Below the pieces are notes generated by a model. It saw nothing but the letters and a program-made list of their open reading frames with translations. It did no database searches and had not been told where the DNA came from. From contig JBBCAW010000038.1 in the NCBI GenBank assembly GCA_051382295.1, positions 1-64,000 on the forward strand: a stretch of DNA of 64,000 bases, in the 5' to 3' direction. Of the stretch, positions 16,631-30,914 are shown piece by piece (position 1 is the first letter of the stretch; each line of letters opens with the position of its first letter). A program made the translations under genes and the position numbers. Source of the stretch: Bdellovibrionota bacterium FG-1. GTDB lineage: Bacteria; Bdellovibrionota; UBA1018.

Positions 16631-17344
16631 ATGAAAAAATTCATAGTTCCGGTTTTAATGATTTCAATGTTTTCAGGAGGTTGGGCTTTAGCAACGGAGG
16701 TAAATGTTCAGCCGGGCACGGCGGCAACCGATAGTGGTGCCATGAGTCAGGCTAAAACGAGTGAGTTGAAGGTCGGTGGGTTGCACGACGAGGTTGTTGG
16801 CGTATCGCCTCAGGTCGGGATGGTGAATTACCACGACATGCTCGGTAATACAGGGAACCGAGGGACGATCGGCTTAACGTCGGATATGAACGCATCCACT
16901 CTCATCTCTAACGTGACAGATATGCCGGATCTCAAATATTTATTTATAGGCCCGCAAGTAGGGTTCTTTTATTCACATATTGGCTCGGGGACTGCCAATT
17001 TCTTTGGTGCCCAGCCCTCGGATATTGCCGCCAGTGGCGATGCGGGGACTAACATGTTTTACATTCCCCTCGATTTGAAAGTGGGGATGAACTATGGGAA
17101 ATTCCGCCCATCCATTCACGGCGGTGGAAACATCTACTATCGGTCGGTTGCGAGCTCCTTTGCCCTGGGTGCGAATCCAGACACTTCTTCAAGTTCTTCT
17201 TGGGCGATTTATCCTAATATCGGGCTCGATCTTGAAGTGGAGTTAACCCGATCGGTCGCTTTGATCGCTCGTCCGGACGTGACACTTGGGGGGAGTAACC
17301 GGATTTGGTCTGCCTCATTGGGTGCTACCATCCCCCTAGGTTAA
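16631..17344 (+). CDS. Small outer-membrane beta-barrel protein, hypothetical
   Basis: Strong RBS GGAGG, signal peptide, alternating beta-strand pattern (YPNIGLDLEVEL, WSASLGATIPL). Confidence 0.65.
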   Translation: MKKFIVPVLMISMFSGGWALATEVNVQPGTAATDSGAMSQAKTSELKVGGLHDEVVGVSPQVGMVNYHDMLGNTGNRGTIGLTSDMNASTLISNVTDMPDLKYLFIGPQVGFFYSHIGSGTANFFGAQPSDIAASGDAGTNMFYIPLDLKVGMNYGKFRPSIHGGGNIYYRSVASSFALGANPDTSSSSSWAIYPNIGLDLEVELTRSVALIARPDVTLGGSNRIWSASLGATIPLG

Positions 17345-17370
17345 GCGAACAAAGAGGGCCCAAGTGAGGT

Positions 17371-17414
17371 TTTCGGCTGGGCTGATGACAGAAATGTCAT
17401 TTTCCCGGCCGAAA
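17371..17414. terminator. Hairpin between convergent genes, possible bidirectional terminator
   Basis: TTTCGGCTGGG / CCCGGCCGAAA outer stem plus ATGACA / TGTCAT inner stem. Confidence 0.55.
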
Positions 17415-17428
17415 CATTTGCAATTGAC

Positions 17429-18127
17429 TTAAACTTGAGTGGTTTTTTTCCAATAGGCAAAGCCGCCGCCGCCTAGGGCAATAAGCGCGAGCGCCGCAAT
17501 AAAGGCAGTACGGTACGTTTTAAGAAGTCCTAATGGGCTCGTTTTTTCGGCCTCAACGGTATCCTCTGAATGGTTCGATGCTGGCGTGCGATTGTTCGCC
17601 TCAGCGGCTACCGTGTCACTACTGGCCGCCCCTGCCGTAAGTTGATTATTTTGCTGGTTTTGAGGCGTGACCTGGGGGGCTGCTTGGGGTGCCGGAGGAT
17701 TAGGGCGCGTTATCGGCTGCTGGGCAAAGCTCGGGGGCTGAGAAGAAGCAGGCTGCCGCGAGTGCGGTGATAAACTCGCCCCTTTGGCTGCCAAGCCCGT
17801 TAGGGTTTTGACCTTCTGGGTCGTATTCTTTTTGATCGCCACATGCTTTTTTGCCCGATTTGGCACTGTTTTCTTAACCGAGACTTCGGGCGTCTCCGTG
17901 GTGGCCGCTGCTTGAGCTACTCCATCTGGGTTGACTGGCGGAGCAGCATCAGTGCCCGCTACTGGGGCGTTCCCATCGGCAGTCGCGCTTGCCGCATCGG
18001 TGGCCTCGTCGCTTGCCTCCTTGCTATGAGAGCACCCTGCCGCGGCCAATAATATGAGGCAGAGCGGGGCGATCCAGAGGGTTGAGGGGCGATGAGGACT
18101 TGTCCAACATTTTTGTGATTGGGTCAT
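17429..18127 (-). CDS. Low-complexity (Ala/Pro/Thr/Gln) lipoprotein with C-terminal membrane anchor
   Basis: Lipobox LAAAG|C; C-terminal hydrophobic helix plus WKK tail; start placed at MTQSQK. Confidence 0.6.
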   Translation of the reverse strand: MTQSQKCWTSPHRPSTLWIAPLCLILLAAAGCSHSKEASDEATDAASATADGNAPVAGTDAAPPVNPDGVAQAAATTETPEVSVKKTVPNRAKKHVAIKKNTTQKVKTLTGLAAKGASLSPHSRQPASSQPPSFAQQPITRPNPPAPQAAPQVTPQNQQNNQLTAGAASSDTVAAEANNRTPASNHSEDTVEAEKTSPLGLLKTYRTAFIAALALIALGGGGFAYWKKTTQV

Positions 18128-18323
18128 CTTGCTCTGCTTATCGGAGGATCTAAAAAAAAATTCAGAGAGAAAAATTTGCCGAGTAAAAAATATCTTTGTT
18201 ATCGAGGTTGCCAGTATTTTGTCGCAAAAAAAAATCGTCAAAATAGTTTCTATATAACTAGTATAAAAAATACATAAAATAAAAATATTCCTATTTTATT
18301 GCCTATCGAATGAAGGGGGCTCT

Positions 18324-18887
18324 GTGATGACAACGCGAGGGGTATGTTATTGGGTGTTTTCGATTGCGGCTTTGACCCAGTTTTATGGAATTTACTCATG
18401 GGCTGCGGATAATCCGCAGGGCGCGGCACGGGGAGAGTCAGCCGTGTCATTGCGATCAGATGAATCCCATACGGTGGTCGAATTTAAGCGCGGTCGGCCA
18501 GAGACCAAGATCAATGTCGATGTGGGACCCTTTGCTTATGGGGCCGGGGGAGGCTACGGAATTTACGTAGGAGGAGCGTTGGAGTCTTGGAATCTGGATA
18601 AATCGTATATTCAGGCGATCGGCGTCCATATGATCAAGGCTGCCACCACCGCTTTGGACATCTCTGGGGCTATTTATTTTGAAACGCTTCCTCGTTTATT
18701 CCTGGGGCCACGGTTGGGGATGAACTATAGCGAAAATACTGGCTTTGCCGCTTTATCCGCACGGATTTTAGGGTCAGACCCCAACGGTCAGCGGTTTTTT
18801 TCGATCCTCTATCCTCAGATTGATCTCGGACTTCGGAGTTCTGGCGCTCCCTATGGCGTGCTTTCGTTTGGTCTTAAGTTTTTGTAA
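18324..18887 (+). CDS. Hypothetical exported protein, probable small beta-barrel
   Basis: Signal peptide, Gly/aromatic alternating strands, C-terminal SFGLKFL. Confidence 0.55.
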   Translation: MMTTRGVCYWVFSIAALTQFYGIYSWAADNPQGAARGESAVSLRSDESHTVVEFKRGRPETKINVDVGPFAYGAGGGYGIYVGGALESWNLDKSYIQAIGVHMIKAATTALDISGAIYFETLPRLFLGPRLGMNYSENTGFAALSARILGSDPNGQRFFSILYPQIDLGLRSSGAPYGVLSFGLKFL

Positions 18888-18889
18888 GC

Positions 18890-18947
18890 AAAACCCCGAG
18901 TCCTTCTTGAAACCGGGTAAGTCTCAAGAGAACTCGGGGTTTTTTTT
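18890..18947. terminator. Bidirectional Rho-independent terminator closing the cytochrome operon
   Basis: AAAACCCCGAGT...ACTCGGGGTTTTTTTTT between convergent genes. Confidence 0.8.
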
Positions 18948-18967
18948 ATTCGATCAGTAATCGGAGC

Positions 18968-20470
18968 TTACTGTTGCTGTAAGCGCTTATAATCCCGCAT
19001 TTCTACCGTGTGACAGGTCTGAGCGCACTGTCCACCGTCGGGGTTCTGGGTGAAAGGAACCGTCACAGAGAACTGTGCGCCTGGGTTCATCTTCCACTCA
19101 GTCTTAATGTGGAACGGTTGCTCGGAGCCATGTGGGTCATGGCAAACAAAGCAGCTCTTGCCCCGGTCCTTGTCAATCGAACCCGCGGCATCCACAACGT
19201 GGAACCAGTGAAGGTTCTTTTTTACTACTTTTCCGTTAACGAGCTTATCGTCGTGGAAGTTCGTTTCTGCCCCAGAGATGTTCTGATTCAACATCGATGG
19301 ATTGTGACATTGGAAGCAAAGCGCATAGCTATTTGGCCTTGCGGGTGCTGTTCCCACGGCAGGCGAACCAGCATCATACTTAGTGGCGTAGGTGCTAGGA
19401 TAGTTGTTTTTGAGCAGCCGAGTATTCTTGGCGGCGTGTGCATTATGACAGTTGATACAGCTATCATCATCATATGCGGCCGAATGAATAAAGGCAGCGT
19501 CATTGACCTTTTGTCCAATATTTGGAAGGGTCCGCGGGTCATTACTCACCACTGCCGATACTTCTTGATTATGGCAGCTTAAGCAGAGCTCGCGTGGTTT
19601 GCCTCTGAGCATCTTCTTGTTATCGCCTGAGTGAGGGAAGTGGCAATTCACGCAGCTCATGGAGTCACTTTTAATGACGCCGTGGATAGATTTGCTCTTA
19701 TCGGGCATCATATCGTGGCATTGCAGACAGGTGTCTTGAATGTTGAGACGGAGAGAAAAGATCTGATCCGAACCATGAGGATTGTGGCAGGTGATGCAAG
19801 AGTCAGGATCTTGTGTCAAAGCCGGATGAATCACAGAATGTGCCTGCATGTTGCCGTGACAGGCTAGGCAGGTATCGGCCACTGACTTATTGGTGACCTT
19901 ATTTCCTTTAGGATCAGTGAGGTGACCGGGCTTGACATCATGACATGCCTTACAAAGGCCCGCTGCAGCTGGAAAGTGGCCGTTAGGTCGATGTTGATGG
20001 TCTGCATGACAGCTGGAGCATTGGTTGTCCACTACTGCGATCGGAGCTGCCGGAGCAGAAGGGGCGACCGGAAGAATGCTTGCTGGGGCTGTGCCTGCGG
20101 GCGCTGCGGACTTGATTGAGTGACAAGAGGTGGCGCATGAAACGTTTGAAAGGGCCGGTGTTTTAAGATTCAGACCGTCATGGCAGGACTTACAGTCTTT
20201 TCCTGTGCCTGCGATCGTTTTTCCATTCTTAGCCACGTATTCGGCATGAAGGACTGACCATTTGGCACTGTGAGGAAAAGTGTAATCTGCCCCTTCTTCT
20301 GTCGTATCCTTAGACAGTGGTGGGGTGTTGTCCCGGCTTTGAGCGCAACCTGTAATGGCCACGGAAATAGCCAGGATGAGGGTGCTGAAGATGAGCCTCG
20401 ATGGGATGGAGGATGTTGAATTTATATGGGAAGTGTTTAAAACTGATTTTTTACTAGCTAAGGAAGTCAC
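18968..20470 (-). CDS. Multiheme c-type cytochrome lipoprotein, 13 heme motifs (11 CxxCH + 2 CxxxCH)
   Basis: Lipobox AITG|C; CKSCH, CATSCH, CSSCH, CKACH, CLACH, CITCH, CLQCH, CVNCH, CLSCH, CINCH, CFQCH, CFVCH, CAQTCH; paired CxxCHxPH repeats. Confidence 0.92.
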   Translation of the reverse strand: MTSLASKKSVLNTSHINSTSSIPSRLIFSTLILAISVAITGCAQSRDNTPPLSKDTTEEGADYTFPHSAKWSVLHAEYVAKNGKTIAGTGKDCKSCHDGLNLKTPALSNVSCATSCHSIKSAAPAGTAPASILPVAPSAPAAPIAVVDNQCSSCHADHQHRPNGHFPAAAGLCKACHDVKPGHLTDPKGNKVTNKSVADTCLACHGNMQAHSVIHPALTQDPDSCITCHNPHGSDQIFSLRLNIQDTCLQCHDMMPDKSKSIHGVIKSDSMSCVNCHFPHSGDNKKMLRGKPRELCLSCHNQEVSAVVSNDPRTLPNIGQKVNDAAFIHSAAYDDDSCINCHNAHAAKNTRLLKNNYPSTYATKYDAGSPAVGTAPARPNSYALCFQCHNPSMLNQNISGAETNFHDDKLVNGKVVKKNLHWFHVVDAAGSIDKDRGKSCFVCHDPHGSEQPFHIKTEWKMNPGAQFSVTVPFTQNPDGGQCAQTCHTVEMRDYKRLQQQ

Positions 20471-20524
20471 GGTGACACCTCAAGTGAAAACGGTTAATTT
20501 TTAACTCACACGCTTATGGCATAT

Positions 20525-20540
20525 TGCATCAAATATGCCT
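20525..20540 (-). promoter_or_regulatory. Candidate sigma-54 promoter for the 13-heme cytochrome
   Basis: Minus strand AGGCATATTTGATGCA (GG-N10-GC), 55 nt before the GTG start. Confidence 0.4.
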
Positions 20541-20559
20541 AGTCTAAAACGAATAATGT

Positions 20560-22113
20560 TTAACTATTCGAACTTATTTGCCTTCTTTCATTCAGCCCAG
20601 AAACGCCGGCGATCACCAGCTGGGTGAGCGTCAGAATCGTAATAAAAGCAGCTCCGCCTGAGCTGAATCCGTAACTGTGGAGACCCGCAGCGAGGATATA
20701 GTTGACGCCAAACCAAGCCATGATGATCGACAAAAAAGCCAATGCACTCATGACCGTGAAAAGGTGTCCTCGGAACCATCCGACATATCTTCCGTGCAAA
20801 ATACTGAGATAGACGATGAGGGCAATGAGGGACCAAGTTTCCTTAGGGTCCCATCCCCAAAATCTTCCCCAAGAATAATCCGCCCATACCCCGCCTAAAA
20901 TAACGCCAGCAGCGAGAAAAACACTGCCCACCTGCATGGTGATGCGGATCACGTAATTCCAGCGGTCCAGAAACTCGGAGGAGCGGTGCCCGGTTAAGCG
21001 GCGAAGAAGAACATAATTAGCAAGCACCCAGGCAAAGGCAAAACAGGCGTAGGAAGAGGTCACGCAAGTGACGTGGGTACTGAGCCAGAAATTATCGCGA
21101 AGGACTGGTACGAGTGGCTGAATATTGCCGTCGAGCATGCCCGTGGCAAAAGTCATCATGAAAAGTGTGATGGTGTTTCCAGCAAAGCCTGCTGCCCAAA
21201 TTTGCTTGTTCTTGAGGCGCAAGCCCATGAGTGAAGACAGAATCAGAATGACAAAGCCCACCCACATCACCGTTTCAAACATATTAGTGATCGGGGCTCG
21301 GCCCGAGATCATCACGCGCAAGGTGATGCCAAAGGCCTCAATGATCAATAGTAGGACCATACAGACGCCAGCGAGACGTCCGAAGGGTGGGGAAATCGAG
21401 GCAAGGAATCCTAAAATGCAGAGGAGAATGGCAAGACTAAAGGGCTTGATACTTTCGTAGAGGCTTTCAGCGCGCATTCCGCGAAGCTCATCGCCAGTAA
21501 GAAGTGCTGTGCCGCCAAGAAGCGTTTTCTCTAGATCGGTATCATTTAAGGTCCTTAGTGTCTCAGCAGGGCGCCATTCGTGATTTCCCGTGAGATACTG
21601 CCAATCCTGGCCGCGAGTGGCTTTGTCAAAACGCTCGATGCGCTGAAGCAGGTTGCCTAGGTCGCGAGCAGGGCCGCTGGTGCCTGCTCCTTTGTTTTCA
21701 AGAGCATGGTAAGTATCCAGCAGCTTGTCGTGTTGCCCCATGGCCAGTTCTGGTGAGATTTCGCTCTGACGCCCGGGAAGCCCGAGTAGTTCAAAGGTCG
21801 CCGCATGATCTGCTTTAAAAAGAAGGCGGCACGAATAGGTTTTTTCAACCCAGGCGCGTTTGCCGAGGTTGAGATAACAGTAAAGAGCGGGAGCGCTAAT
21901 CTCAGTACAGGCGTTGCCAGAAAATACATTCTTGCGAAATTTTTGCGCATAAACGCCTAAGGGCATCGCACGGCCCTCAGCCAGAATAGGTTGGCTCGAT
22001 AATTCTGGATTGAGGCACGGGTCACTGGCCTGCGCATTGGGCGCCAGTCCAAGTAACAGTGTCAAAGTGAGAAAAATTCCAAGGGCTGAACGAGCGGGAG
22101 ATGGTAGATTCAT
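20560..22113 (-). CDS. ccsA: Cytochrome c synthase CcsA/ResC (system II)
   Basis: GRAPITNMFET, LVPVLRDNFWLSTHV, tryptophan-rich WADYSWGRFWGWDPKETW and GLHSY. Confidence 0.93.
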   Translation of the reverse strand: MNLPSPARSALGIFLTLTLLLGLAPNAQASDPCLNPELSSQPILAEGRAMPLGVYAQKFRKNVFSGNACTEISAPALYCYLNLGKRAWVEKTYSCRLLFKADHAATFELLGLPGRQSEISPELAMGQHDKLLDTYHALENKGAGTSGPARDLGNLLQRIERFDKATRGQDWQYLTGNHEWRPAETLRTLNDTDLEKTLLGGTALLTGDELRGMRAESLYESIKPFSLAILLCILGFLASISPPFGRLAGVCMVLLLIIEAFGITLRVMISGRAPITNMFETVMWVGFVILILSSLMGLRLKNKQIWAAGFAGNTITLFMMTFATGMLDGNIQPLVPVLRDNFWLSTHVTCVTSSYACFAFAWVLANYVLLRRLTGHRSSEFLDRWNYVIRITMQVGSVFLAAGVILGGVWADYSWGRFWGWDPKETWSLIALIVYLSILHGRYVGWFRGHLFTVMSALAFLSIIMAWFGVNYILAAGLHSYGFSSGGAAFITILTLTQLVIAGVSGLNERRQISSNS

Positions 22114-23819
22114 GTGACCTCGCGTGAACGAAAAGTGATATACCCGTAAATGACCAAGAAATGGAAAATAAGGCCTGCGATCAGGAGAATGGATCCCAGG
22201 TATTTAACGGGGCGCCCTGGATCCTTATTAACGGACAGGATGGAGTGGAACTTTCCCTGATCATCCTGAAGGTAGGAAGCTTGGTAAAAGGTGTATCCGT
22301 CGCTTTTGAGCGGATGATTCATATAGATATGAGCCGTTGTTTGCTTCCCTGATTCGGGGGATCCCACCTTGACAAAAGACTCATAACTGGCTGGACGATC
22401 CATCGTGCCGGGTACCATTTCCATTTTGAAATGGTCGAGCTGCATGGCAAAGGGGAGCTGCATTTCTTTTGCGCTTATAAAGCTTTCTTCCAGGCCGAGT
22501 CGAGATGAGGTGGCCTCACGGTTGGTGAGCCAAACATCTTCGGAGTCTCGGACGGCGCCCTTTTGTGAATCTTTTGGATTAGCCGGTGCCTCGATGTGGA
22601 CGAGTAAGGCTTTGGTGTTCTTTGAATCTTCCTTATTGGGTTGAGCAGCGTCATAGCCACTTTTGGGTCTTTGGTTGGGGTGATCCGCTAGACGAGTCAG
22701 GGTGAAGCCCATCCAAGGTAGGGTCAGTGTTCCACCATTATACTGTGAAAAAATCCATTGTCCCGATTTGTCCACCATCGCGATATGAACCGAAGAGTCG
22801 GGGAGGCGGCTCAGGAGAACATGGTTTGACTCGGAGTACTTCGTCAAGTCAATCAGGCTATAGGGCGAAGTCAGGTCAACCTGGAGGTGTTGGGTTGCTG
22901 GCTTCGCGGAAAATCGGGGGAAAAATCGCAGAGGTCCGGTAGGGGTGTCGAGTTGATAAAATTCGACCGCTGCCTTTTTCCCGATCTGTCGGCTAATAAA
23001 GAACTTTGAACCTAGGATCGATTGGCGATGGGTGACCTCAGGGATGAAAAAAGATTTTTGTGTATTATTATCAAAAAGCACGAACTGAGGTTTGACCGAA
23101 CGGCTCGGAGATGTTGTTCCAGGTTTTGGTGTGGCTAGCCCATTTTCAAGGATGGCAAAAACTTGAGGGGGGAGTGCTTCGACGCGAAGGGGGCCTAGCT
23201 CAGCTAAGGCCGGCTCGCCCGGGGCCAAGACCAGAGTGGTTTCTTGGCTAACACGATCGTTTTTAATTAACCAGGTGCTCGACCAAACGCCAACCGAAGT
23301 GACCCAGGTCGGAGTTTCTTTCGCATACGGAAGGTATTTGATCAGGCTGAGCTTTGCCCCGTTGGCCAAAAGGAACGAGTGATTGAGTGAGGTGGCTGAA
23401 ACAGTGTCAGGGAGCTGAAATGAGGACTGTTGGCCGGTCCCGTTGAAGTAAGCATAGTCTTCGCTGAGCCGGATTTTCTGGGTCGGCGCATCTTCGCGTA
23501 ACTCGATGGTGCCATCAATTCCTAGGTATCTGGTCATGAAAGCCCCCGCCATGATGATGATCAGCGAGGTATGGATGAGGTAAAAGCCGCTGAGGCGTTT
23601 TTTGAAAGGAAGGCGGTCAATCATAGCAAAAAGGACACTTAACAAGATGGAAAGCTGGATCCCGTAAAAAAACCAGCTCTGGTAGACAGTGCGCCTAGCG
23701 TATTCCGTGCCATAAAGGCTTTCGAGAACTGTGCCTACGCTCATGGCGATCGCGAATAGAGATAAAACCGGGATTGCAAAACGAACTGAAGCTATCCATT
23801 TGAAATAACGATTCTTCAT
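22110..23819 (-). CDS. resB: Cytochrome c biogenesis protein ResB/CcsB (system II)
   Basis: GTVLES, GFYLIH (conserved His), LPF..L..F, IYMNHPL...GYTFYQASY, LSVNKDPG and C-terminal TM; start at MKNRYF. Confidence 0.9.
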   Translation of the reverse strand: MKNRYFKWIASVRFAIPVLSLFAIAMSVGTVLESLYGTEYARRTVYQSWFFYGIQLSILLSVLFAMIDRLPFKKRLSGFYLIHTSLIIIMAGAFMTRYLGIDGTIELREDAPTQKIRLSEDYAYFNGTGQQSSFQLPDTVSATSLNHSFLLANGAKLSLIKYLPYAKETPTWVTSVGVWSSTWLIKNDRVSQETTLVLAPGEPALAELGPLRVEALPPQVFAILENGLATPKPGTTSPSRSVKPQFVLFDNNTQKSFFIPEVTHRQSILGSKFFISRQIGKKAAVEFYQLDTPTGPLRFFPRFSAKPATQHLQVDLTSPYSLIDLTKYSESNHVLLSRLPDSSVHIAMVDKSGQWIFSQYNGGTLTLPWMGFTLTRLADHPNQRPKSGYDAAQPNKEDSKNTKALLVHIEAPANPKDSQKGAVRDSEDVWLTNREATSSRLGLEESFISAKEMQLPFAMQLDHFKMEMVPGTMDRPASYESFVKVGSPESGKQTTAHIYMNHPLKSDGYTFYQASYLQDDQGKFHSILSVNKDPGRPVKYLGSILLIAGLIFHFLVIYGYITFRSREVT

Positions 23820-23829
23820 ATTTGTCCCT

Positions 23830-24144
23830 TTATTCAGTGCCGTTTGGCCCGTGGCAATCGAGACATCTGCGGGACCCATTTTTTATATCGGTAAGGAGCT
23901 GGTCTGCATCGATCATCGTATCTACATCTCGATGAATGTTGAGGGCAGCATTGTGGCAAAGGGCGCACTCGGTTCGTCCGTATCCGCCTCTATGCTGCTC
24001 GGGTGTCGTCAAACGTATCGGAATTTGGCTTGTGTCGCCATAATTTTCGGTGTCCCGATTGGCTTTGCCGCATGCGGTAAAAAGGGTGATGGAAAGAGCC
24101 ATCAGCATTAGTGTGAGCAAAAAAATGAGTCTTCTACGTTTCAT
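23830..24144 (-). CDS. Small diheme cytochrome c lipoprotein
   Basis: MKRRRL signal, lipobox LFTA|C, CALCH and CLDCH; ATGA overlap with the upstream gene. Confidence 0.85.
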   Translation of the reverse strand: MKRRRLIFLLTLMLMALSITLFTACGKANRDTENYGDTSQIPIRLTTPEQHRGGYGRTECALCHNAALNIHRDVDTMIDADQLLTDIKNGSRRCLDCHGPNGTE

Positions 24145-24752
24145 TTGATCCCCAGATGACAGTTGGTGCAGAACGATTTGGTATGGCAGGTATCGCATCT
24201 CTGTGGCTGCAGACGGGCTTGGACTGAATGGTAAAACCGGAAATTGCGAGGATGGTTTCGCAATTCAATGTCGTTTCGTTCAGAATGACATTTAACGCAC
24301 TGTGATGTAACATGACAATTGAGGCAGCTATCGCCGCCGATTCGAGCCTCGGCGCCGTGAGTACTTTTCCAAACGACATTGCTGTGACTAGGGGGCATGA
24401 TTGCACTCAGGCCTGCGGGATTATAATGGCAGGTGTAACAGGTCTTGGGAGCGTCGACGAATCTTGGATCAGTGCTTCGGTGGCACTGATGGCAGACTTC
24501 TTTGAGTGGAATCCGAAACATGGATTTTTTGAGATCATTGGTCGGCGTGAGTTGTTTTGTCACTTTATCTAATGCGAAATTATGACATTTAGCACATTCA
24601 AAACCGAGCGGCTTGAAAACCTTGGCGTCATGAAAATCGTGATTGTATCTTTCCGCAAGAATCGACGTAGCGGCGAATACCGAGCGGCCAAGGGGGGTGA
24701 GTAGCCCTATCAGGATAAGGCTGATTGAAATGACAAGAGCAGAGAATTTCAT
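24141..24752 (-). CDS. Heptaheme periplasmic c-type cytochrome
   Basis: Signal peptide; CAKCH, CHQCH, CYTCH, CLNCH, CVKCH, CDTCH, CTNCH; repeated H..(W/F)...H...A......CxxCHxxxxCxxCH unit; ATGA overlap with the porin stop. Confidence 0.9.
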   Translation of the reverse strand: MKFSALVISISLILIGLLTPLGRSVFAATSILAERYNHDFHDAKVFKPLGFECAKCHNFALDKVTKQLTPTNDLKKSMFRIPLKEVCHQCHRSTDPRFVDAPKTCYTCHYNPAGLSAIMPPSHSNVVWKSTHGAEARIGGDSCLNCHVTSQCVKCHSERNDIELRNHPRNFRFYHSVQARLQPQRCDTCHTKSFCTNCHLGIK

Positions 24753-26005
24753 ATTTCCGTCCACATCAGGTATTTCAGTGCCGCAAAAGCGCGCGCATCA
24801 TAAGTCACGCTATTGTTGCTGTTCATTTCCCCTCCCAGCGTGAGGCGAAGCCGATTCGAGAGAGATTGCGTGAGTTCAAGTTGGGAGCTAAATGCGGCAC
24901 GCTTCGAAGAGGTCACTTTGTTGTAAAAGGCAAAGTCTACGGCTTCCGCGAGTTCTAAGAGGTCCGTAAGCTTTTGAGTGAGGACGAGTCGATCGCCGTA
25001 AACTTGACCACCATAGCTCTGCAAGGCATAAAAAGAGTTACTGACGCTCGAGTGATTCCGGCGATAACGGAAGTCCGCTTCTGCCTTGATTCCATCGGTC
25101 CTATCGGGCGACTGATTGACGTAATTGTCATAGGCCAATGAAAAGCTGGTCGAAAAATGCGGACTAAACCGATACTCAGCCTGAACCGATGTTTCGTAGA
25201 GCCTGCCCTGAGAAAAAATTGAAAATATAGGCTGCTCGACGCCATCGATTGGCTGCAACTCATAGGTTTCAGCTCTCCATCTCAGGGAGGTGCGGTACGT
25301 CGGGTATAAATTGATGCCGGCACTGAGCCGATTGAGGTGGCTAGTACCAAGGTTGATCTCAGTATCCGCCAAGTACTCAGGACTCCATCCTCCAGGAAAG
25401 GGTTTTTGAGCCGAAACCTGTATTAAGTCCTCCTGGCTGTTCAGGTCGCGCTCGAAAATGCGATGCTGGTATTTCGCCTTGGTATAGAGGGGAAACATGC
25501 TTGCCCCCATGTAGCTCGCATAGGCACCCAGGAGAGTTGCCGAGGGAGTCCATTGCGCGAGTTCTAGATGGCGTTCTTTTCCCGCAAAAGTTCCGATTTT
25601 GATTTGTTTTTCAAAGAGAAAAAGGTCAATCGCTGCGGTGTCCAAGACCGAGGATCTGACTGACCTTTGAATATCAAAAACACGGCCCGCCGTAATATTG
25701 AGGACATCATGGACAGGGCTGTAGGAAAGATTCAGAAGATGAACATTGAGGGTGTCGTGAGATTTGACTGGGTCGGCATAGACATTGAGATCTGAATTGA
25801 CCTCAAAGTCACGAAGGGTGGAAACATAGGTGGCAGACAAAAATTCATAACTCGGAAGTTCGAATTTCAGGTCGTCGCCATTTCGGGCCGAGGTGAGCGT
25901 CTCCGATTCCAGTCTGAAAAGACCGGCCTGGCAGGGAAATGTCAGTCCGGTCGTCGCGGAAACTAGGCCGATGCCAAAGGCGAGGATCCTACCAGCGGCG
26001 TTCAT
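24749..26005 (-). CDS. Predicted outer-membrane beta-barrel (porin of a porin-cytochrome complex)
   Basis: Signal peptide (CQA|G); continuous alternating strands (YETSVQAEYRF, IKAEADFRYR, LRLTLGGEM, ARAFAALKY); lies between and overlaps two multiheme genes. Confidence 0.75.
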   Translation of the reverse strand: MNAAGRILAFGIGLVSATTGLTFPCQAGLFRLESETLTSARNGDDLKFELPSYEFLSATYVSTLRDFEVNSDLNVYADPVKSHDTLNVHLLNLSYSPVHDVLNITAGRVFDIQRSVRSSVLDTAAIDLFLFEKQIKIGTFAGKERHLELAQWTPSATLLGAYASYMGASMFPLYTKAKYQHRIFERDLNSQEDLIQVSAQKPFPGGWSPEYLADTEINLGTSHLNRLSAGINLYPTYRTSLRWRAETYELQPIDGVEQPIFSIFSQGRLYETSVQAEYRFSPHFSTSFSLAYDNYVNQSPDRTDGIKAEADFRYRRNHSSVSNSFYALQSYGGQVYGDRLVLTQKLTDLLELAEAVDFAFYNKVTSSKRAAFSSQLELTQSLSNRLRLTLGGEMNSNNSVTYDARAFAALKYLMWTEI

Positions 26006-27206
26006 TTTTCACCTCGTGCATGCGGTCATATTTCATCGTTGCGTGGCAAGCCGTAGCACAGCTGCCTCCTGTTGCGGTGGGTTCAAAGTGAATGGGAAGC
26101 TTCATTCCTTTGTAAGGCGACCAGGATTGGATCAGGAACCGGTTAGCGCTGAAGTGAACCGTATGGCAGACTCGACAAGTGCGATTTCGCGCGGGGTTTT
26201 GGTTGGTGTGCACCCAGTGGAGGTTTCTCGGGCCGTTTCGAAAGCCCGTAGCGTCAGCAGAGTTGGCAGATGTGGCCAGTTTCGAGTCGTGGCACTTGAA
26301 ACAGAGTGCAAAATTCTTTTCATTGAAGGTTTCATAGAATTGATCGGTAAAGTGGCCTTTTAGGAATGGCCGTTCAACGCTTTCATGGAGGGAATGGCAG
26401 CCGATACATTGAGGCGCAGGACGGGGGGGGGCGTGCGAGTTTGCGGTCGATCCGTGACGGATCATGGAGCCATCTTTCCATGGGGCCATCGCAGGGAGCA
26501 TGTGGCCATCCTCTGATGATTTGATGGCTTTTTCGTGGCAGCCCAGGCAGGTGCCATCGGGGTCGTTTTTAACCGAGCTTTTTTGAGCGGGCCTGTGGGC
26601 ATTATGGCAGTGCAGACATTTTTCTTTAGGGAATGTCGCATGCTTTCCGGCGAGAGTGGATGGGGTGATGTCGACAAAGTCGTGGCAGCTGGTGCAGGTC
26701 TCAGCCACGGTGGATTTTTTGAGGAGCTTCGGGTGGTTGGACGAGTGGGGGTTGTGGCAGCCTACACATCCCTCTTTTTCGATTACAGCATGGGCGTTTT
26801 TGGAGATCAGCAAATTTTCAAGATTATCGTGGCAGGTTACGCAAAGCTTGTTTTGGTCGCTGGGCTGCCGAATACTGACAGCGGGATGGCCGGCAGGAAC
26901 CTTTTTGAGTGGATTACCCGGTTCATGGCAAATAATGCACCCGTTCCTGGCTTTTACCGGGGGGTGAATATATGCACCTTCGAGTCTTGAGGTGTGGCAT
27001 TTCGAAGTCATGCAAGTCACATTTGCGGTTGCTTTTGATCTAGAATCAAGGGTGACATTGAGTTGGGTCTTTGGATCGGCGACCAAAACTGAAGTATTCA
27101 CCAAAAAAAATAAGAGTGCAGCTAGAGAATGGCGTCCATACTTGGAGACGAACAATGGAGTACTCGCTTTCTTGGTTTTTACTGCCATAGCATGAACTGC
27201 ACTCAT
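25989..27206 (-). CDS. Multiheme c-type cytochrome, 11 heme motifs (9 CxxCH + CxxxxCH + CxxxCH)
   Basis: CMTSKCH, CIICH, CVTCH, CVGCH, CTSCH, CLHCH, CLGCH, CIGCH, CFKCH, CRVCH, CATACH; N-terminal hydrophobic segment; start uncertain (27236/27206/27188). Confidence 0.9.
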   Translation of the reverse strand: MSAVHAMAVKTKKASTPLFVSKYGRHSLAALLFFLVNTSVLVADPKTQLNVTLDSRSKATANVTCMTSKCHTSRLEGAYIHPPVKARNGCIICHEPGNPLKKVPAGHPAVSIRQPSDQNKLCVTCHDNLENLLISKNAHAVIEKEGCVGCHNPHSSNHPKLLKKSTVAETCTSCHDFVDITPSTLAGKHATFPKEKCLHCHNAHRPAQKSSVKNDPDGTCLGCHEKAIKSSEDGHMLPAMAPWKDGSMIRHGSTANSHAPPRPAPQCIGCHSLHESVERPFLKGHFTDQFYETFNEKNFALCFKCHDSKLATSANSADATGFRNGPRNLHWVHTNQNPARNRTCRVCHTVHFSANRFLIQSWSPYKGMKLPIHFEPTATGGSCATACHATMKYDRMHEVKNERRW

Positions 27207-27275
27207 CCCGAAATATCGAATTAACCAGAAAAGCATTCCGCAAAAATATTTTGCGAAATAAAACTACGACTCCGG

Positions 27276-27776
27276 CTATCGTATTTTTATTTTTTCCCGA
27301 CAGAGATCTCTTACCTGAGGGAGAATGTCCCCATTTTGGGCACAGCGACTCAAGAACTCCATGATTTGCGTTTTGAACTGAGGGCTTTCCTGAACGACCT
27401 CGTCCAGTTGATCGAGGTAGGCTTTTGCGTAATCCAGCCACTCGGAGGTGTCTCTGGGTTCTTCGACGGGCTGGTTCCTTAAGTCCAACTCAGTGGGGAG
27501 TTGTTGTTGAATTTCAGCTAGTAAGTTGGAAAGTTCAAGCTGGGTTATGGCGGAATTTGGGTTACCGGTGGGTTCCGGGGAAAAGCTGGGAGGTGCAGTT
27601 GATGGGGTATTGAATGGCTCCAGAGGGCTAGCGCTGAAAGGGCTATGGATCGAGGAGGGCGCAGGAGTGGGAAGTGGAGGTTCTGGTTTGTTTGAAAAGA
27701 AAAATAGTCCAAGAAAAGGGAGGAGGGCTATCACGCACCCCAAAGCTATTTTTGGAAGTTTGATGTGGGGGCTCAT
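27276..27776 (-). CDS. Hypothetical membrane-anchored protein with Pro/Ser linker and helical domain
   Basis: N-terminal TM helix, Pro-rich spacer and two C-terminal Cys; first gene in the direction of the cytochrome operon. Confidence 0.55.
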   Translation of the reverse strand: MSPHIKLPKIALGCVIALLPFLGLFFFSNKPEPPLPTPAPSSIHSPFSASPLEPFNTPSTAPPSFSPEPTGNPNSAITQLELSNLLAEIQQQLPTELDLRNQPVEEPRDTSEWLDYAKAYLDQLDEVVQESPQFKTQIMEFLSRCAQNGDILPQVRDLCREKIKIR

Positions 27777-27928
27777 GGCTCTCTGTCTAACATAGGTCAG
27801 TAGAAAAGGATCAACAGGCCCGCGTGTTTAATTTCATGGGACAAAAACTCCCAAAAAAAAGAACAAAGTTATGTTGTGCGGCAAAATCTTATTTGGTAGA
27901 TACCTCGCCACGAAAGTGAGAATGATTT

Positions 27929-28237
27929 ATGAAAAATGGAATTGCTATTTTGGCCCTGGCTTTTGTTTTGGTTCCGTCTGCATCCTTCGCTAAGCCTCCT
28001 ATTATGATGGCTTTCAAGGCTACTTATCCAACCACTAAGCTTGCAGTGAATTGTAAGGTTTGCCATACAACCCCGCCGCAGTTGAACCCTTATGGTCTGG
28101 ATGTGCAAAAGACCAAAGCCGCAGACGGAAAGTTTGATTTCAAGACGATTGAATCACTCGATTCTGATGCTGATGGCGTCTCCAATCTGGACGAAATCAA
28201 TGTGGGTACGAATCCTGGCGATAAGGATTCTCATTAA
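27929..28237 (+). CDS. Small secreted monoheme c-type protein with TSP3-like Ca-binding motif
   Basis: Signal peptide (SFA|K), CKVCH, LNPYG and DSDADGVSNLDEINVGTNPGD. Confidence 0.8.
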   Translation: MKNGIAILALAFVLVPSASFAKPPIMMAFKATYPTTKLAVNCKVCHTTPPQLNPYGLDVQKTKAADGKFDFKTIESLDSDADGVSNLDEINVGTNPGDKDSH

Positions 28238-28261
28238 TTCATATTAATAGCATCTACATCG

Positions 28262-28315
28262 GCGTCTCTTGAGAGTCGAGGTTTAGCCCTCCTTTCTCAA
28301 GAGACGCTTTTATTT
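28262..28315 (+). terminator. Rho-independent terminator
   Basis: GCGTCTCTTGAGA / TCTCAAGAGACGC stem followed by TTTTATTT. Confidence 0.7.
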
Positions 28316-28414: not shown

Positions 28415-28450
28415 CTCTTGTTGTCTAAATTTGAGACGATGGGAGTAAAT

Positions 28451-29506
28451 ATGTACCTGTTCAATAAAAAACGAATCATGAATCAAGCTCCGCTCACTGT
28501 TTCCATGGCAGTGGTTTTGGTTTTAATCAGCGGAGGGTGTGGTTCAACTCTCGATTTACAGCAGGGCAACGGGACGATTAGTCCTGGCGCAGGGCAAGGA
28601 AGTTCAGCAGGAACTCCAACCGCCACGGATACTTCATATCCCGTTCTGACAGGAACGAGTGACGGAGGATCAGGAGGTTCAGGGACCTCGGCTACGATGC
28701 CGCATCCGACTACAGTTACATTACCTATCAGTGCGGCTGCCGTGAAGGACGTGGTAGCCGGTATGGTGGGTAACCTGAGTTCACCCTTGGCTCCGGCCAA
28801 TATGAAGCCTAACGTGCCCAAGAGCACGACTGAGTGTTTATCCTACACTGTCATTCAGAAGGAAACCTTTTCAGCGGCTCAATTAACCCAGTCGGTGAAT
28901 GGGAATCGGTTTCCGACGGATACTTGGTGCAGTAATAAGAGTGCCCTTTGTGCAGATGGTAAAAAAACCGAAGATATTATTTGTTCCATGAAGGGCTATC
29001 AGACTGCTGTTTCGTCAAAGTCTGAAGGCTTTAACATCACGGCCTATGTGTTCCCATTTTACCCGACCTGCGTGTCCGATAAGGGCGGTTGCAGTGGTTT
29101 TACTCAACTGGTCTGCAGTAAAGTCCTGCTCAACGTAGCTGCGGATAAATTGCCGACTAAAACCGCGACAGTGGCAGTGACAGCCTCTTGCTTTCATGAG
29201 GCCGTGATTACCAAAGAAATCATTACTAATGATCGAATAAAAAAGAGCGTTAATGGAAATTCTTTTCCGCTGGATACTTGGTGTTCAGATCAGTCTCCGG
29301 TTTGTGCGCTGATTGCTAAGACTGTGCCGGAACTTGTTTGTCTCTTGAATGGATATTCCTCCGTGGTTCCGGCTGAAACGCAACAAAGCGAGTTTGATAT
29401 CACAGCCTATCTTCTACCTGGCAAGAACAATGCGACCTGCGTGTCGAGCCATAAGGGATGCGGTGGCTTGACCTCAATATCTTGTTTCAAGACTACGATT
29501 AAATAA
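28451..29506 (+). CDS. Lipoprotein with Gly/Ser/Thr linker and two tandem Cys-rich domains
   Basis: Lipobox ISGG|C; duplicated SVNGN.FP.DTWCS...C...C..KGY/NGY...F.ITAY..P...CVS..GC.G.T...C unit; GGGAG RBS. Confidence 0.7.
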   Translation: MYLFNKKRIMNQAPLTVSMAVVLVLISGGCGSTLDLQQGNGTISPGAGQGSSAGTPTATDTSYPVLTGTSDGGSGGSGTSATMPHPTTVTLPISAAAVKDVVAGMVGNLSSPLAPANMKPNVPKSTTECLSYTVIQKETFSAAQLTQSVNGNRFPTDTWCSNKSALCADGKKTEDIICSMKGYQTAVSSKSEGFNITAYVFPFYPTCVSDKGGCSGFTQLVCSKVLLNVAADKLPTKTATVAVTASCFHEAVITKEIITNDRIKKSVNGNSFPLDTWCSDQSPVCALIAKTVPELVCLLNGYSSVVPAETQQSEFDITAYLLPGKNNATCVSSHKGCGGLTSISCFKTTIK

Positions 29507-29507
29507 T

Positions 29508-30914
29508 TTAGGGCAACACGGTTTGCCGTCGTTTTTCGATGAGTTCTTTTGCCCGAGTTCGCGAGATCTCAAAAGGATTGGTGGCTTGACGCTGAAGAAT
29601 TTCCAAGATGGGTTCCCAATCTTGATGGGACTCATTTTGGAGCGATTCCAGACGCGCAATCAGACGAGCTTCCCAACGTCGAGCGTGATCATCGGGGCGT
29701 TCCACGAGTGTTTTGTAGGTTTCCGTGGCGGCCATCCCCACATAGGGGATCCAGGCAGCCGCAAAGATCACGCCGGCACTTTCGATTTCTAGCGCAACCC
29801 GAGTGCCGTAGATCCAATGGGGCTTGGACGCGTCCCACGCCCATTTAGGTTCCGAAAAAGAGCTGACGCCAAAACGGAGGTAGGAGGACAAGTAGATTCG
29901 TCCCGGCGACGGGGCATCCCAGCTTGAGGTCCAATCGAAGTGTTCACTTAATGTGCTGTAGGGCTCACCTTGTTTTTGGAGCCAACGGCGTGTGAGAATT
30001 GTGGCGGTTTTCTGGATTTTCAAGGCCTTGCGCCAAGTTGAAATCGGCTTTTTCCAAATCCACTGAGGGATATCCAATAGGGAGCTTTGAAAGTAGAGGA
30101 TAGAAGTGACCGCTCGGCCTTTTTCGTTCGGAGTTAGTTCAGGAAGGGAGTCTTCCATCATTTCTAAAAAGGCGTCTTGATGGCTGTAAATTAATAGATC
30201 TTCGTATCGAAAAAATCGATCTAACGCAGTACCAAAAAGCGCTCCGACCAGGGGTACAGGGATAAAGCTAACCGCGGTGTACAAACCGGCTCGAATCAGT
30301 TCTCTGGCAATCGCTTCGGTCAATTGCGCTTTGGGTTTTCGCAGATTGGCGATTGAATAGAGTGAGGCGGCCTTGACATCTAATGGGGATGGATTCCAGT
30401 AAATCGTATAATGTCCATCGGGGTTGCGGATAAATTCGATTTGCTCAAAGAAGTGGGGGTGCCTTTTTTCGACTGCTTTTGAATACCGTGCAAAGCGTCG
30501 TGGGGAGGTCGCTATTCGGAGAAAGTCGATATCTGAAAGCAAAAAACGGGACGGCTCATTTTGAAATGTCGTCAGTCGTTCGTCTTTCCATGGGATCTGA
30601 CGCCACCAGTCGGTTGAAGTGGTTGCCAGCGTTTTGTTATTTTGAGCGGTACTCCATTGTTCGAGGGGTGGGGTTTCAGAAAGTGCCACTCGGGTGGCAA
30701 AACCGGGAAAGGACAAGTCAAAGATTGAAATAGCTCGGCCATGGTTATTTCGTTCAAGTGCCCATCGGGTTCCGAGGGGAAGGAGGGCCGCGGAGGCTGT
30801 CAGGGATCCCATCAGTACGGCAACGAATAAGAAGAATTGAATCGGTTTGTTAGGGTGGGCTGGCCAGCGGGGGGGAACAAACTTCATGTTCGTTGGGTCC
30901 TCTTTGAGAGTCAT
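29508..30914 (-). CDS. Hypothetical exported protein
   Basis: 468-aa ORF with signal-like segment and internal hydrophobic helices; no recognised motif. Confidence 0.6.
   Translation of the reverse strand: MTLKEDPTNMKFVPPRWPAHPNKPIQFFLFVAVLMGSLTASAALLPLGTRWALERNNHGRAISIFDLSFPGFATRVALSETPPLEQWSTAQNNKTLATTSTDWWRQIPWKDERLTTFQNEPSRFLLSDIDFLRIATSPRRFARYSKAVEKRHPHFFEQIEFIRNPDGHYTIYWNPSPLDVKAASLYSIANLRKPKAQLTEAIARELIRAGLYTAVSFIPVPLVGALFGTALDRFFRYEDLLIYSHQDAFLEMMEDSLPELTPNEKGRAVTSILYFQSSLLDIPQWIWKKPISTWRKALKIQKTATILTRRWLQKQGEPYSTLSEHFDWTSSWDAPSPGRIYLSSYLRFGVSSFSEPKWAWDASKPHWIYGTRVALEIESAGVIFAAAWIPYVGMAATETYKTLVERPDDHARRWEARLIARLESLQNESHQDWEPILEILQRQATNPFEISRTRAKELIEKRRQTVLP

Follow-up and report, generated by a model that had tools for sequence, protein, structure and literature searches.

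A minus-strand gene block of Bdellovibrionota bacterium FG-1 very probably encodes a porin-cytochrome conduit across the outer membrane. The block lies in a stretch of 64,000 nucleotides, here called the window (positions 1 to 64,000 of contig JBBCAW010000038.1), where eight open reading frames (ORFs) run from position 27776 down to 18968 and a gene for a monoheme protein is divergent (Table 1). It was found that the conserved unit is a three-gene core, consisting of a porin, a 7-heme cytochrome, and a diheme lipoprotein, with exchangeable accessories. The locus probably represents a divergent subfamily of the porin-cytochrome (Pcc) conduits of the OmbB/ExtABCD type, and not a third design. 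Outward export of respiratory electrons is the explanation that I favor, with moderate confidence. The Bdellovibrionota are best known for predators, and the Geobacter conduit is used to breathe iron minerals.

Is the gene arrangement conserved in related bacteria? A set of proteins at 90% identity held 8 relatives of the porin, the query included, and a profile search found 129 among 50%-cluster representatives. With a wider profile, the porin was found in 23 of 301 sampled genomes of the phylum, the FG-1 genome included, and in 9 of the 38 other genomes of the family. The DNA around all 22 non-self matches was fetched. Two of these loci end at a contig edge, and five further loci from named records were left out of the counts as possible duplicates. 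The 7-heme gene directly follows the porin gene in all 20 assessable loci. The diheme lipoprotein gene is present in 18 of 19 assessable loci (a locus ending after the 7-heme gene is excluded); one locus lacks it, and in one it lies upstream. Named records with the porin are titled Bacteriovoracaceae, Oligoflexia, Bdellovibrionota, or Deltaproteobacteria.

The neighbors of the triad vary. A FastTree tree, used only for choosing distant members and for separating subtypes, divides the porins into two subtypes. The gene for the 11-heme protein lies directly upstream of the porin gene in 5 of 7 loci of the window's subtype. In loci of the second subtype, the triad is usually followed by genes for a tetraheme protein, an 11-heme protein (about 700 aa), and a NapC-like hexaheme protein. 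A resB gene, a ccsA gene, or both lie near the porin gene in 6 of the 22 related loci. A full-length homolog of the 13-heme lipoprotein was found near the porin in only one of the 22 (L011), plus a metagenome locus (L074), while other loci have different lipoprotein multihemes with 6 to 30 motifs. Thus, the locus is a core with exchangeable accessories. A synteny survey, proposed in the preliminary description of this DNA, thus shows the triad to be conserved, while the larger block is not a fixed unit. Three oddities were seen in these loci. ResB and CcsA are fused into one ORF of 1080 aa on the divergent side of a porin gene (L058:10428-13670), another porin gene is split by a single TAA stop, being either broken or wrongly assembled (L049:1493-2773), and lipoprotein cytochromes with as many as 30 (L053:2787-5267) and 25 (L018:1407-3740) heme motifs lie beside clusters of the second subtype.

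Natural fusions of a cytochrome and the porin were also found. By eye, 12 heme motifs were counted before the barrel in P0069, a cluster of 5 members, and P0081 has a 4-motif cytochrome part. P0096, a porin with a piece of three hemes at its C-terminus, was left out of the fusions, since it may have arisen in assembly.

The porin was modeled by AlphaFold2 as a barrel of 22 strands with a mean predicted local distance difference test score (pLDDT) of 93.8 from an alignment of 103 sequences, which bears out the barrel called earlier from the letters alone. The barrel starts at residue 28, straight after the signal peptide, and has no plug domain. Thus, the lumen should be free. The best fold matches are TonB-receptor and usher barrels (best Z 19.9, root-mean-square deviation 3.9, 350 residues aligned), and MtrB is at rank 15 (Z 17.3, deviation 4.6, 343 residues aligned). 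No Pcc-type complex is among the matches listed in two fold searches, although one may be present lower down. A TonB-dependent receptor was considered, since the best folds are 22-strand TonB barrels, but was rejected for the lack of an N-terminal plug and the total length of 418 aa. In sequence searches the porin had no Pfam, NCBIfam, or PDB match, and its profile retrieved only designed barrels and an opacity protein from PDB, with E-values of at least 0.002.

The 7-heme protein has a signal peptide and no conserved lipobox. Pfam places PF14522 at residues 40-113, and the profile of the protein gave weak matches to solved cytochromes (E at least 2e-4). Besides the seven CxxCH motifs, it has exactly seven other histidines, all of them invariant among 22 sequences. 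In the diheme lipoprotein, the lipobox cysteine (Cys43), two CxxCH motifs, and two distal histidines are invariant among 18 sequences. The invariant non-motif histidines, seven in one protein and two in the other, are as expected for bis-histidine electron carriers without a catalytic site. The +2 residue of the diheme lipoprotein is Gly, not Asp; the sorting rule for Escherichia coli lipoproteins concerns Asp at this position.

Prediction of a complex of the porin, the 7-heme protein, and four hemes gave a score of 0.84, while the best control scored 0.00. Of 157 solved complexes, 116 attained the mark used for this score, as did 2 of 215 mismatched pairs. At least 80% of contacts recur between runs, and the pLDDT of the partner is 70-75. 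All confident contacts fall within residues 128-201 of the 7-heme protein (hemes 4-7). On the side of the porin, they involve every one of the 22 strands and 6 of the 11 extracellular loops, and no contact was predicted with any of the 10 periplasmic turns, if both termini of the porin are taken as periplasmic. The four-heme C-terminal domain is thus predicted to sit in the barrel lumen under the extracellular loops, and the c7-like three-heme domain would face the periplasm. Modeling of the porin with the 7-heme protein and the lipoproteins had been proposed from the sequence as a check on heme threading; the prediction for the first two supports binding. Segment 170-190 of the 7-heme protein is the least variable of three stretches measured in it (entropy of 1.2 bits against 2.2 in the N-terminal domain). 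The residues of the porin at the predicted interface are more conserved than its other residues, as lumen-facing residues may be anyway.

The porin is probably homologous to OmbB of Geobacter sulfurreducens. The OmbB sequence of 403 aa, printed in the supplement of PMC4282303, was compared by eye with positions counted by hand. Seven motif blocks are common to both proteins in the same order, with offsets from 0 to +12. They are GRxF (107-110 in both), an Asp (121 in OmbB and 122 in the window porin), FxG[KR] (138 and 140), AGxxxYPT (223 and 229), I[FY]S[IV]F[AS]xxRxxE (251 and 260), [GS]YxGxxxG (318 and 330), and ExNxN-x5-D (382 and 393). OmbB is identical in 8 of the 12 near-invariant columns of the porin family (Met1 excluded). 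A published survey, which defined Pcc clusters by BLAST similarity to OmbB, OmaB, or OmcB at E < 0.01, gives 18-22 strands for the porins, 5-14 hemes for the periplasmic cytochromes, and 1-15 motifs for the outer-membrane cytochromes (PMC4245776). The 22 strands of the porin, the adjoining 7-heme protein with its signal peptide, and the adjoining diheme lipoprotein with its invariant lipobox cysteine all fit these descriptions. As in the OmbB-OmaB-OmcB clusters, a porin gene of about 400 codons is followed by genes for a periplasmic multiheme and a lipoprotein cytochrome (PMC4282303, PMC4245776), and 7-heme periplasmic partners are already listed in the survey for three Pcc clusters outside Geobacter. 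The differences are the constant core lipoprotein, a tiny diheme protein instead of the 12-heme OmcB, the ResB/CcsA pair in the operon, and the large sequence divergence. The table of the 2014 survey includes no Bdellovibrionota (PMC4245776).

The gene order is that of ExtABCD (GSU2645-GSU2642), where a large periplasmic multiheme, a porin, a small multiheme, and a lipoprotein cytochrome follow each other (PMC6148476). The motif counts differ, being 11 (9 of them canonical), 7, and 2 here and 12, 5, and 6 in the table of PMC4282303; PMC6148476 gives 12 hemes for ExtD. ExtC is called a lipoprotein in PMC6148476, and the 7-heme protein lacks a conserved lipobox. With MtrCAB and MtoAB (Shewanella; PDB 6r2q), the locus shares the design principle, and paired-CXXCH repeats in common with MtrA were found in the 11-heme protein (E 6.5e-8) and the 13-heme protein (E 1.2e-11). 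In contrast, the porin is much shorter than the 649 residues of the solved MtrB chain. Membership in the MtrAB family was rejected, since the porin matches neither PF11854 nor TIGR03509, and DmsE/MtrA decaheme identity of the two cytochromes was rejected at 66 and 77 bits against a TIGR03508 cut-off of 192. The preliminary description had taken the composition to differ from both the Geobacter and the Shewanella models. Given the OmbB motifs in order, the extABCD gene order, and counts in the Pcc range, this view is not supported.

The genes, their overlaps, and the closing hairpin are real, and all ORFs lie where they had been placed. With likely start codons, 4-bp overlaps join the porin and 7-heme genes, the 7-heme and diheme genes, and resB and ccsA, and a 17-bp overlap joins the 11-heme and porin genes. 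These overlaps suggest translational coupling. Gaps of 10 bp and 89 bp separate the diheme gene from resB and ccsA from the 13-heme gene, respectively. The total of 34 heme motifs reported earlier holds only if four atypical CX3-4CH motifs are included, as 30 are canonical CxxCH. The 415-aa protein (the 11-heme protein) has nine CxxCH, one CX3CH, and one CX4CH, the 500-aa protein (the 13-heme protein) has 11 CxxCH and two CX3CH, and the 207-aa, 122-aa, and 102-aa proteins have seven, two, and one CxxCH, respectively. In composition shuffles, the canonical count was matched in none of 5000 for each of the four multiheme proteins and in 1 of 5000 for the monoheme protein.

What donates electrons to such a conduit? 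In comparison with the genomes behind L022 and L023, the FtsH and Era proteins encoded in the window show 83-84% and 60-61% identity, respectively. L022 carries the triad and comes from a record titled with the name FG-2, and FG-2 was placed in family UBA1018 (PMC13200544). On these identities, the FG-1 bacterium would belong to the same family. Its genome (97.7% complete) has 19 proteins or ORFs with at least three CxxCH, 155 motifs altogether. A second conduit of another type lies on contig C53 (L063, G000:C53:46898-61945), where a DmsE-type decaheme (246 bits against the cut-off of 192), the only TIGR03509 match of the genome, which is an MtrB/PioB porin, and a 14+2-motif cytochrome are encoded. 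There is no MtrC-type gene among these three genes. About 4.5 kb away lies a group of genes for a monoheme, a tetraheme, a NapC-like hexaheme, and a 725-aa protein with 10+1 motifs. Homologs of the latter two adjoin relatives of the window porin. A tetraheme-NrfD-tetraheme-NrfC module, adjoined by a gene for the nitric oxide reductase qNor, was found on contig C66 (L064, G000:C66:28702-34649), and it presumably resembles Geobacter CbcSTU. The NrfD passes the DsrP cut-off; a role in sulfate reduction was rejected, as dsrA was not found in the genome. Genes resembling alternative complex III lie on C3, and a multiheme/cytochrome b pair on C129 is one that I take to resemble CbcL. Genes for cbb3 and bd oxidases, qNor, and formate dehydrogenase are present, while RuBisCO, dsrA, and nrfA were not found at this completeness. 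Three molybdopterin-family matches were read as Fdh, ActB, and NuoG, and none as a nitrate reductase. Further large cytochromes are encoded at L068, L067, L072, and L070 (G000: C59, C115, C13, and C139), among them a 20-heme protein, a 14+2-motif lipoprotein near chemotaxis-like and hyp-like genes, a 6-heme protein, and a 12-heme protein.

A putative quinol module (NrfD/NrfC or NapC-like) lies near the porin in 14 of the 22 related loci, three NapC-like proteins and one NrfC in this count having been recognized by inspection. Among the 301 genomes, NrfD occurs in 15 of the 23 with the porin and in 6 of the 278 without it, and seven of the eight porin-positive genomes without NrfD have a NapC-like gene beside the porin. 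Of 11 carriers of an MtrB-like porin, 9 are porin-positive and 2 are not. The system is not self-contained, contrary to what had been proposed. Its conserved core has only three genes, to which the 166-aa gene does not belong and the 13-heme gene is an accessory, and putative modules for the quinol side lie elsewhere in the genome.

The gene triad, the fusions, the OmbB motifs, the complex score, and the context of quinol modules support the conduit reading. Electrons from quinol would enter through the NrfD/NrfC/tetraheme module of C66 or the NapC-like hexaheme of C53 and pass to the 11-heme protein and other periplasmic multihemes. These may charge the c7-like three-heme domain projecting into the periplasm, and the electrons would then cross via the four hemes inside the barrel. 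All seven hemes would be bis-histidine ligated, as in non-catalytic wires. The diheme lipoprotein may cap the outer face and hand the electrons over to large lipoprotein cytochromes, the 13-heme protein among them, which would be interchangeable. Heme attachment would be the task of a dedicated ResB/CcsA pair. When oxygen is absent, Fe(III) or Mn(IV) oxides or humic quinones would be the most likely acceptors. If a conduit is formed, about two thirds of its likelihood goes to outward, respiratory flow. The preliminary description left the direction open. The gene context now favors the outward one, and I prefer it because the organism appears to be a heterotroph without RuBisCO, with few other anaerobic acceptors and two conduit types, and because the tested relatives export electrons.

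Several points weigh against this account. The comparison with OmbB was made by eye and carries no E-value, no Geobacter-named protein is among the 20 of 129 representatives looked up, and a profile of 18 distant members retrieved 96 proteins, none of them Geobacter-named and the two organism-named ones from Binatia. Calibration of the complex score holds only roughly, because the alignments were my own and only four hemes were supplied for seven sites, and the model may have drawn on a general familiarity with porin-cytochrome complexes. The NapC assignment on C53 is just below the Pfam cut-off (23.7 against 24.1 bits). The co-occurrence counts run across kin and overstate independence, so no weight was put on their p-values. 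A conduit can run either way, and the same is true of NrfD- and NapC-type modules. Reduction of Fe(III) or Mn(IV) oxides is absent from some organisms with Pcc clusters (PMC4245776).

The same conduit could instead carry electrons inward, from Fe(II) or reduced humics to the cbb3 or bd oxidases or the nitric oxide reductase. The high-affinity oxidases and qNor would suit this, as would the mtrAB-like locus without an MtrC-type gene, a pattern tied to Fe(II) oxidizers in the Pcc survey (PMC4245776). Inward flow is nevertheless unlikely, given that RuBisCO was not found, that large lipoprotein multihemes stand beside the porin in many loci, and that the tested Geobacter conduits of the same design work outward (PMC4282303, PMC6148476); in liposomes, the OmbB complex moved electrons across the membrane to Fe(III) (PMC4282303).

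A conduit might also serve purposes other than respiration, either surface reduction of Fe(III) for Fe(II) uptake and magnetite formation or redox sensing and electron dumping. The FG-1 genome has a magnetosome-like cluster (L077, G000:C18:9095-19912) with MamA, MamQ, MamB/MamM (two cation diffusion facilitator transporters), and MamE/MamO/MamP-like genes, these calls being best NCBIfam matches that are all below the equivalog cut-offs. All four MamA-positive genomes among the 301 carry the porin and no porin-negative genome has MamA; within the family, MamA occurs in 3 of the 10 genomes with the porin and in none of the 29 without it. On the other hand, 19 of the 23 porin-positive genomes have no MamA match, the cluster does not lie beside mam or iron-uptake genes in the window, and the 19 multiheme proteins with their 155 motifs resemble an investment in respiration. 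I consider a non-respiratory role a shade less likely than inward flow.

It is highly unlikely that no conduit exists at all and that the barrel is an ordinary channel beside a periplasmic redox chain. The top fold matches of the porin are transporters, and the 7-heme protein alone was modeled poorly (pLDDT 60, too poor for a fold search), while the strict gene coupling, the fusions, the OmbB-like motifs, and the controlled complex prediction speak for a conduit. Least likely is a contact-dependent exchange of electrons with prey or a partner cell, as the porin is present in so few of the sampled genomes that predation does not need it and no predation gene was recognized in the related loci (the FG-1 genome itself was not searched for such genes), even though the phylum is largely predatory, with a Kil/Tad system in 81% of high-quality genomes (PMC13200544), and a lake survey that reported extracellular electron transfer genes in Bacteriovoracia and Bdellovibrionia bins speculated that predators use such proteins (10.1101/2022.03.26.485925).

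Table 1. Features of the porin-cytochrome locus and its borders (window coordinates)
Feature	Position	Strand	Remarks
Core porin, 418 aa with signal peptide	24749..26005	-	22-strand plugless beta-barrel; probable distant member of the OmbB/Pcc family
Core 7-heme cytochrome c, 207 aa	24141..24764 (likely start 24752)	-	c7-like three-heme N-terminal domain and four-heme C-terminal domain
Core diheme lipoprotein, 122 aa	23830..24198 (likely start 24144)	-	candidate outer cap
Periplasmic paired-CXXCH cytochrome, 415 aa	25989..27236	-	semi-conserved; occupies the extA position
ResB/CcsB-type cytochrome c maturation protein (System II)	22110..23879 (likely start 23819)	-	PF05140
CcsA-type cytochrome c synthase (System II)	20560..22113	-	PF01578
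Accessory paired-CXXCH lipoprotein cytochrome, 500 aa (13-heme)	18968..20470	-	candidate surface terminal reductase; PF09699
Small monoheme protein, 102 aa	27929..28237	+	divergent; loosely associated with such clusters
166-aa protein with N-terminal hydrophobic segment and Pro-rich linker	27276..27776	-	probably not part of the system
Long hairpin	18889..18950 (about)		probably an intrinsic terminator for both of its convergent neighbor genes; found once in the genome
Second hairpin	28261-28315 (about)		3' of the monoheme gene; z -6.2; single copy in the genome

Among the accessory genes, the 415-aa cytochrome matches PF09699 and TIGR01905 over the cut-offs, with the DmsE/MtrA model below its own, and it has a paralog on contig C156. 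An OspC label for it was rejected (Pfam E 0.009, below the cut-off). The 13-heme lipoprotein has its lipobox at Cys42, as read from the sequence, and is 45% identical to the 20-heme paralog on C59. The earlier ResB and CcsA calls agree with the Pfam matches, and a second copy of resB lies on C8. The monoheme protein has homologs in L015 and L058 and a 73% identical paralog beside another cytochrome cluster on C53. The 166-aa protein, earlier counted in the block, has no Pfam or NCBIfam match and no tblastn match in any fetched locus of other genomes. Thus, nothing ties it to the system.

The hairpin at 18889-18950 closes the minus-strand block and is common to the convergent plus-strand gene. 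It folds with a z-score of -7.2 as minus-strand RNA (0 of 200 shuffles as low) and of -4.0 on the plus strand, where it is followed by 8 U, against 4 U on the minus strand. A scan for consensus terminators did not list it. Both hairpins that bracket the locus hold a TCTTGA...TCAAGA core. The GC content of the locus is 49.8%, against 50-51% around it; this is uninformative, and a reading of horizontal transfer based on it was rejected. The flanking ORFs 28418-29506 (+), 29508-30914 (-), and 16631-18887 have no Pfam or NCBIfam match, and the product of one flanking ORF is a Cys-rich, probable lipoprotein of 362 aa with an internal repeat. Outside these loci, a large unnamed subfamily of related porins (P0107 and the 96 proteins found by the profile, with two organism-named members from Binatia) suggests further unrecognized conduits.

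What is already known is the design of the conduit and the proposal of Fe(III) respiration for the probable host family. A 2026 study, which is based on genomes only, proposes MtrAB-based Fe(III) respiration for family UBA1018; its main text names only MtrAB, with the outer-membrane cytochrome lacking in that operon, and does not mention multiheme, OmcB, ExtA, or Pcc (PMC13200544). The magnetotactic UBA1018 bacteria described there have a mam cluster, mtrAB with an upstream MtrA-like gene, and cbb3 and bd oxidases, like the FG-1 bacterium, which is probably of the same family. The earlier remark that the lineage is not known for mineral respiration is thus not supported. The cluster itself is not described in the main text of PMC13200544. 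No description of the porin/7-heme/diheme triad in Bdellovibrionota was found in the literature searched by title and the start of the abstract, most subscription papers lying outside this search. What sets this locus apart is a porin family that Pfam and NCBIfam do not name, a minimal diheme cap, and its tie to the magnetotactic part of a predatory phylum.

The locus probably extends the Geobacter-type Pcc conduits to the Bdellovibrionota, where about 8% of the sampled genomes carry the porin, and the FG-1 bacterium is probably magnetic and adapted to low oxygen. The locus provides candidates for the surface cytochromes missing from the published MtrAB-only model of the lineage, so that the claim of Fe(III) respiration in uncultured, probably magnetotactic bacteria can be tested by heterologous expression. 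With three core genes and only nine hemes, it is also a compact conduit for structural work and for engineering of electron export. As a tentative and so far doubtful speculation, this lineage-specific conduit with a minimal two-heme cap may allow members of a predatory phylum in anoxic sediment to respire iron minerals or to pass electrons to prey or a partner cell, and in the magnetotactic members the same wire may also supply Fe(II) for magnetite. If true, these bacteria would be predators that breathe minerals anaerobically, and their conduits would belong to a family recognized by neither Pfam nor NCBIfam.

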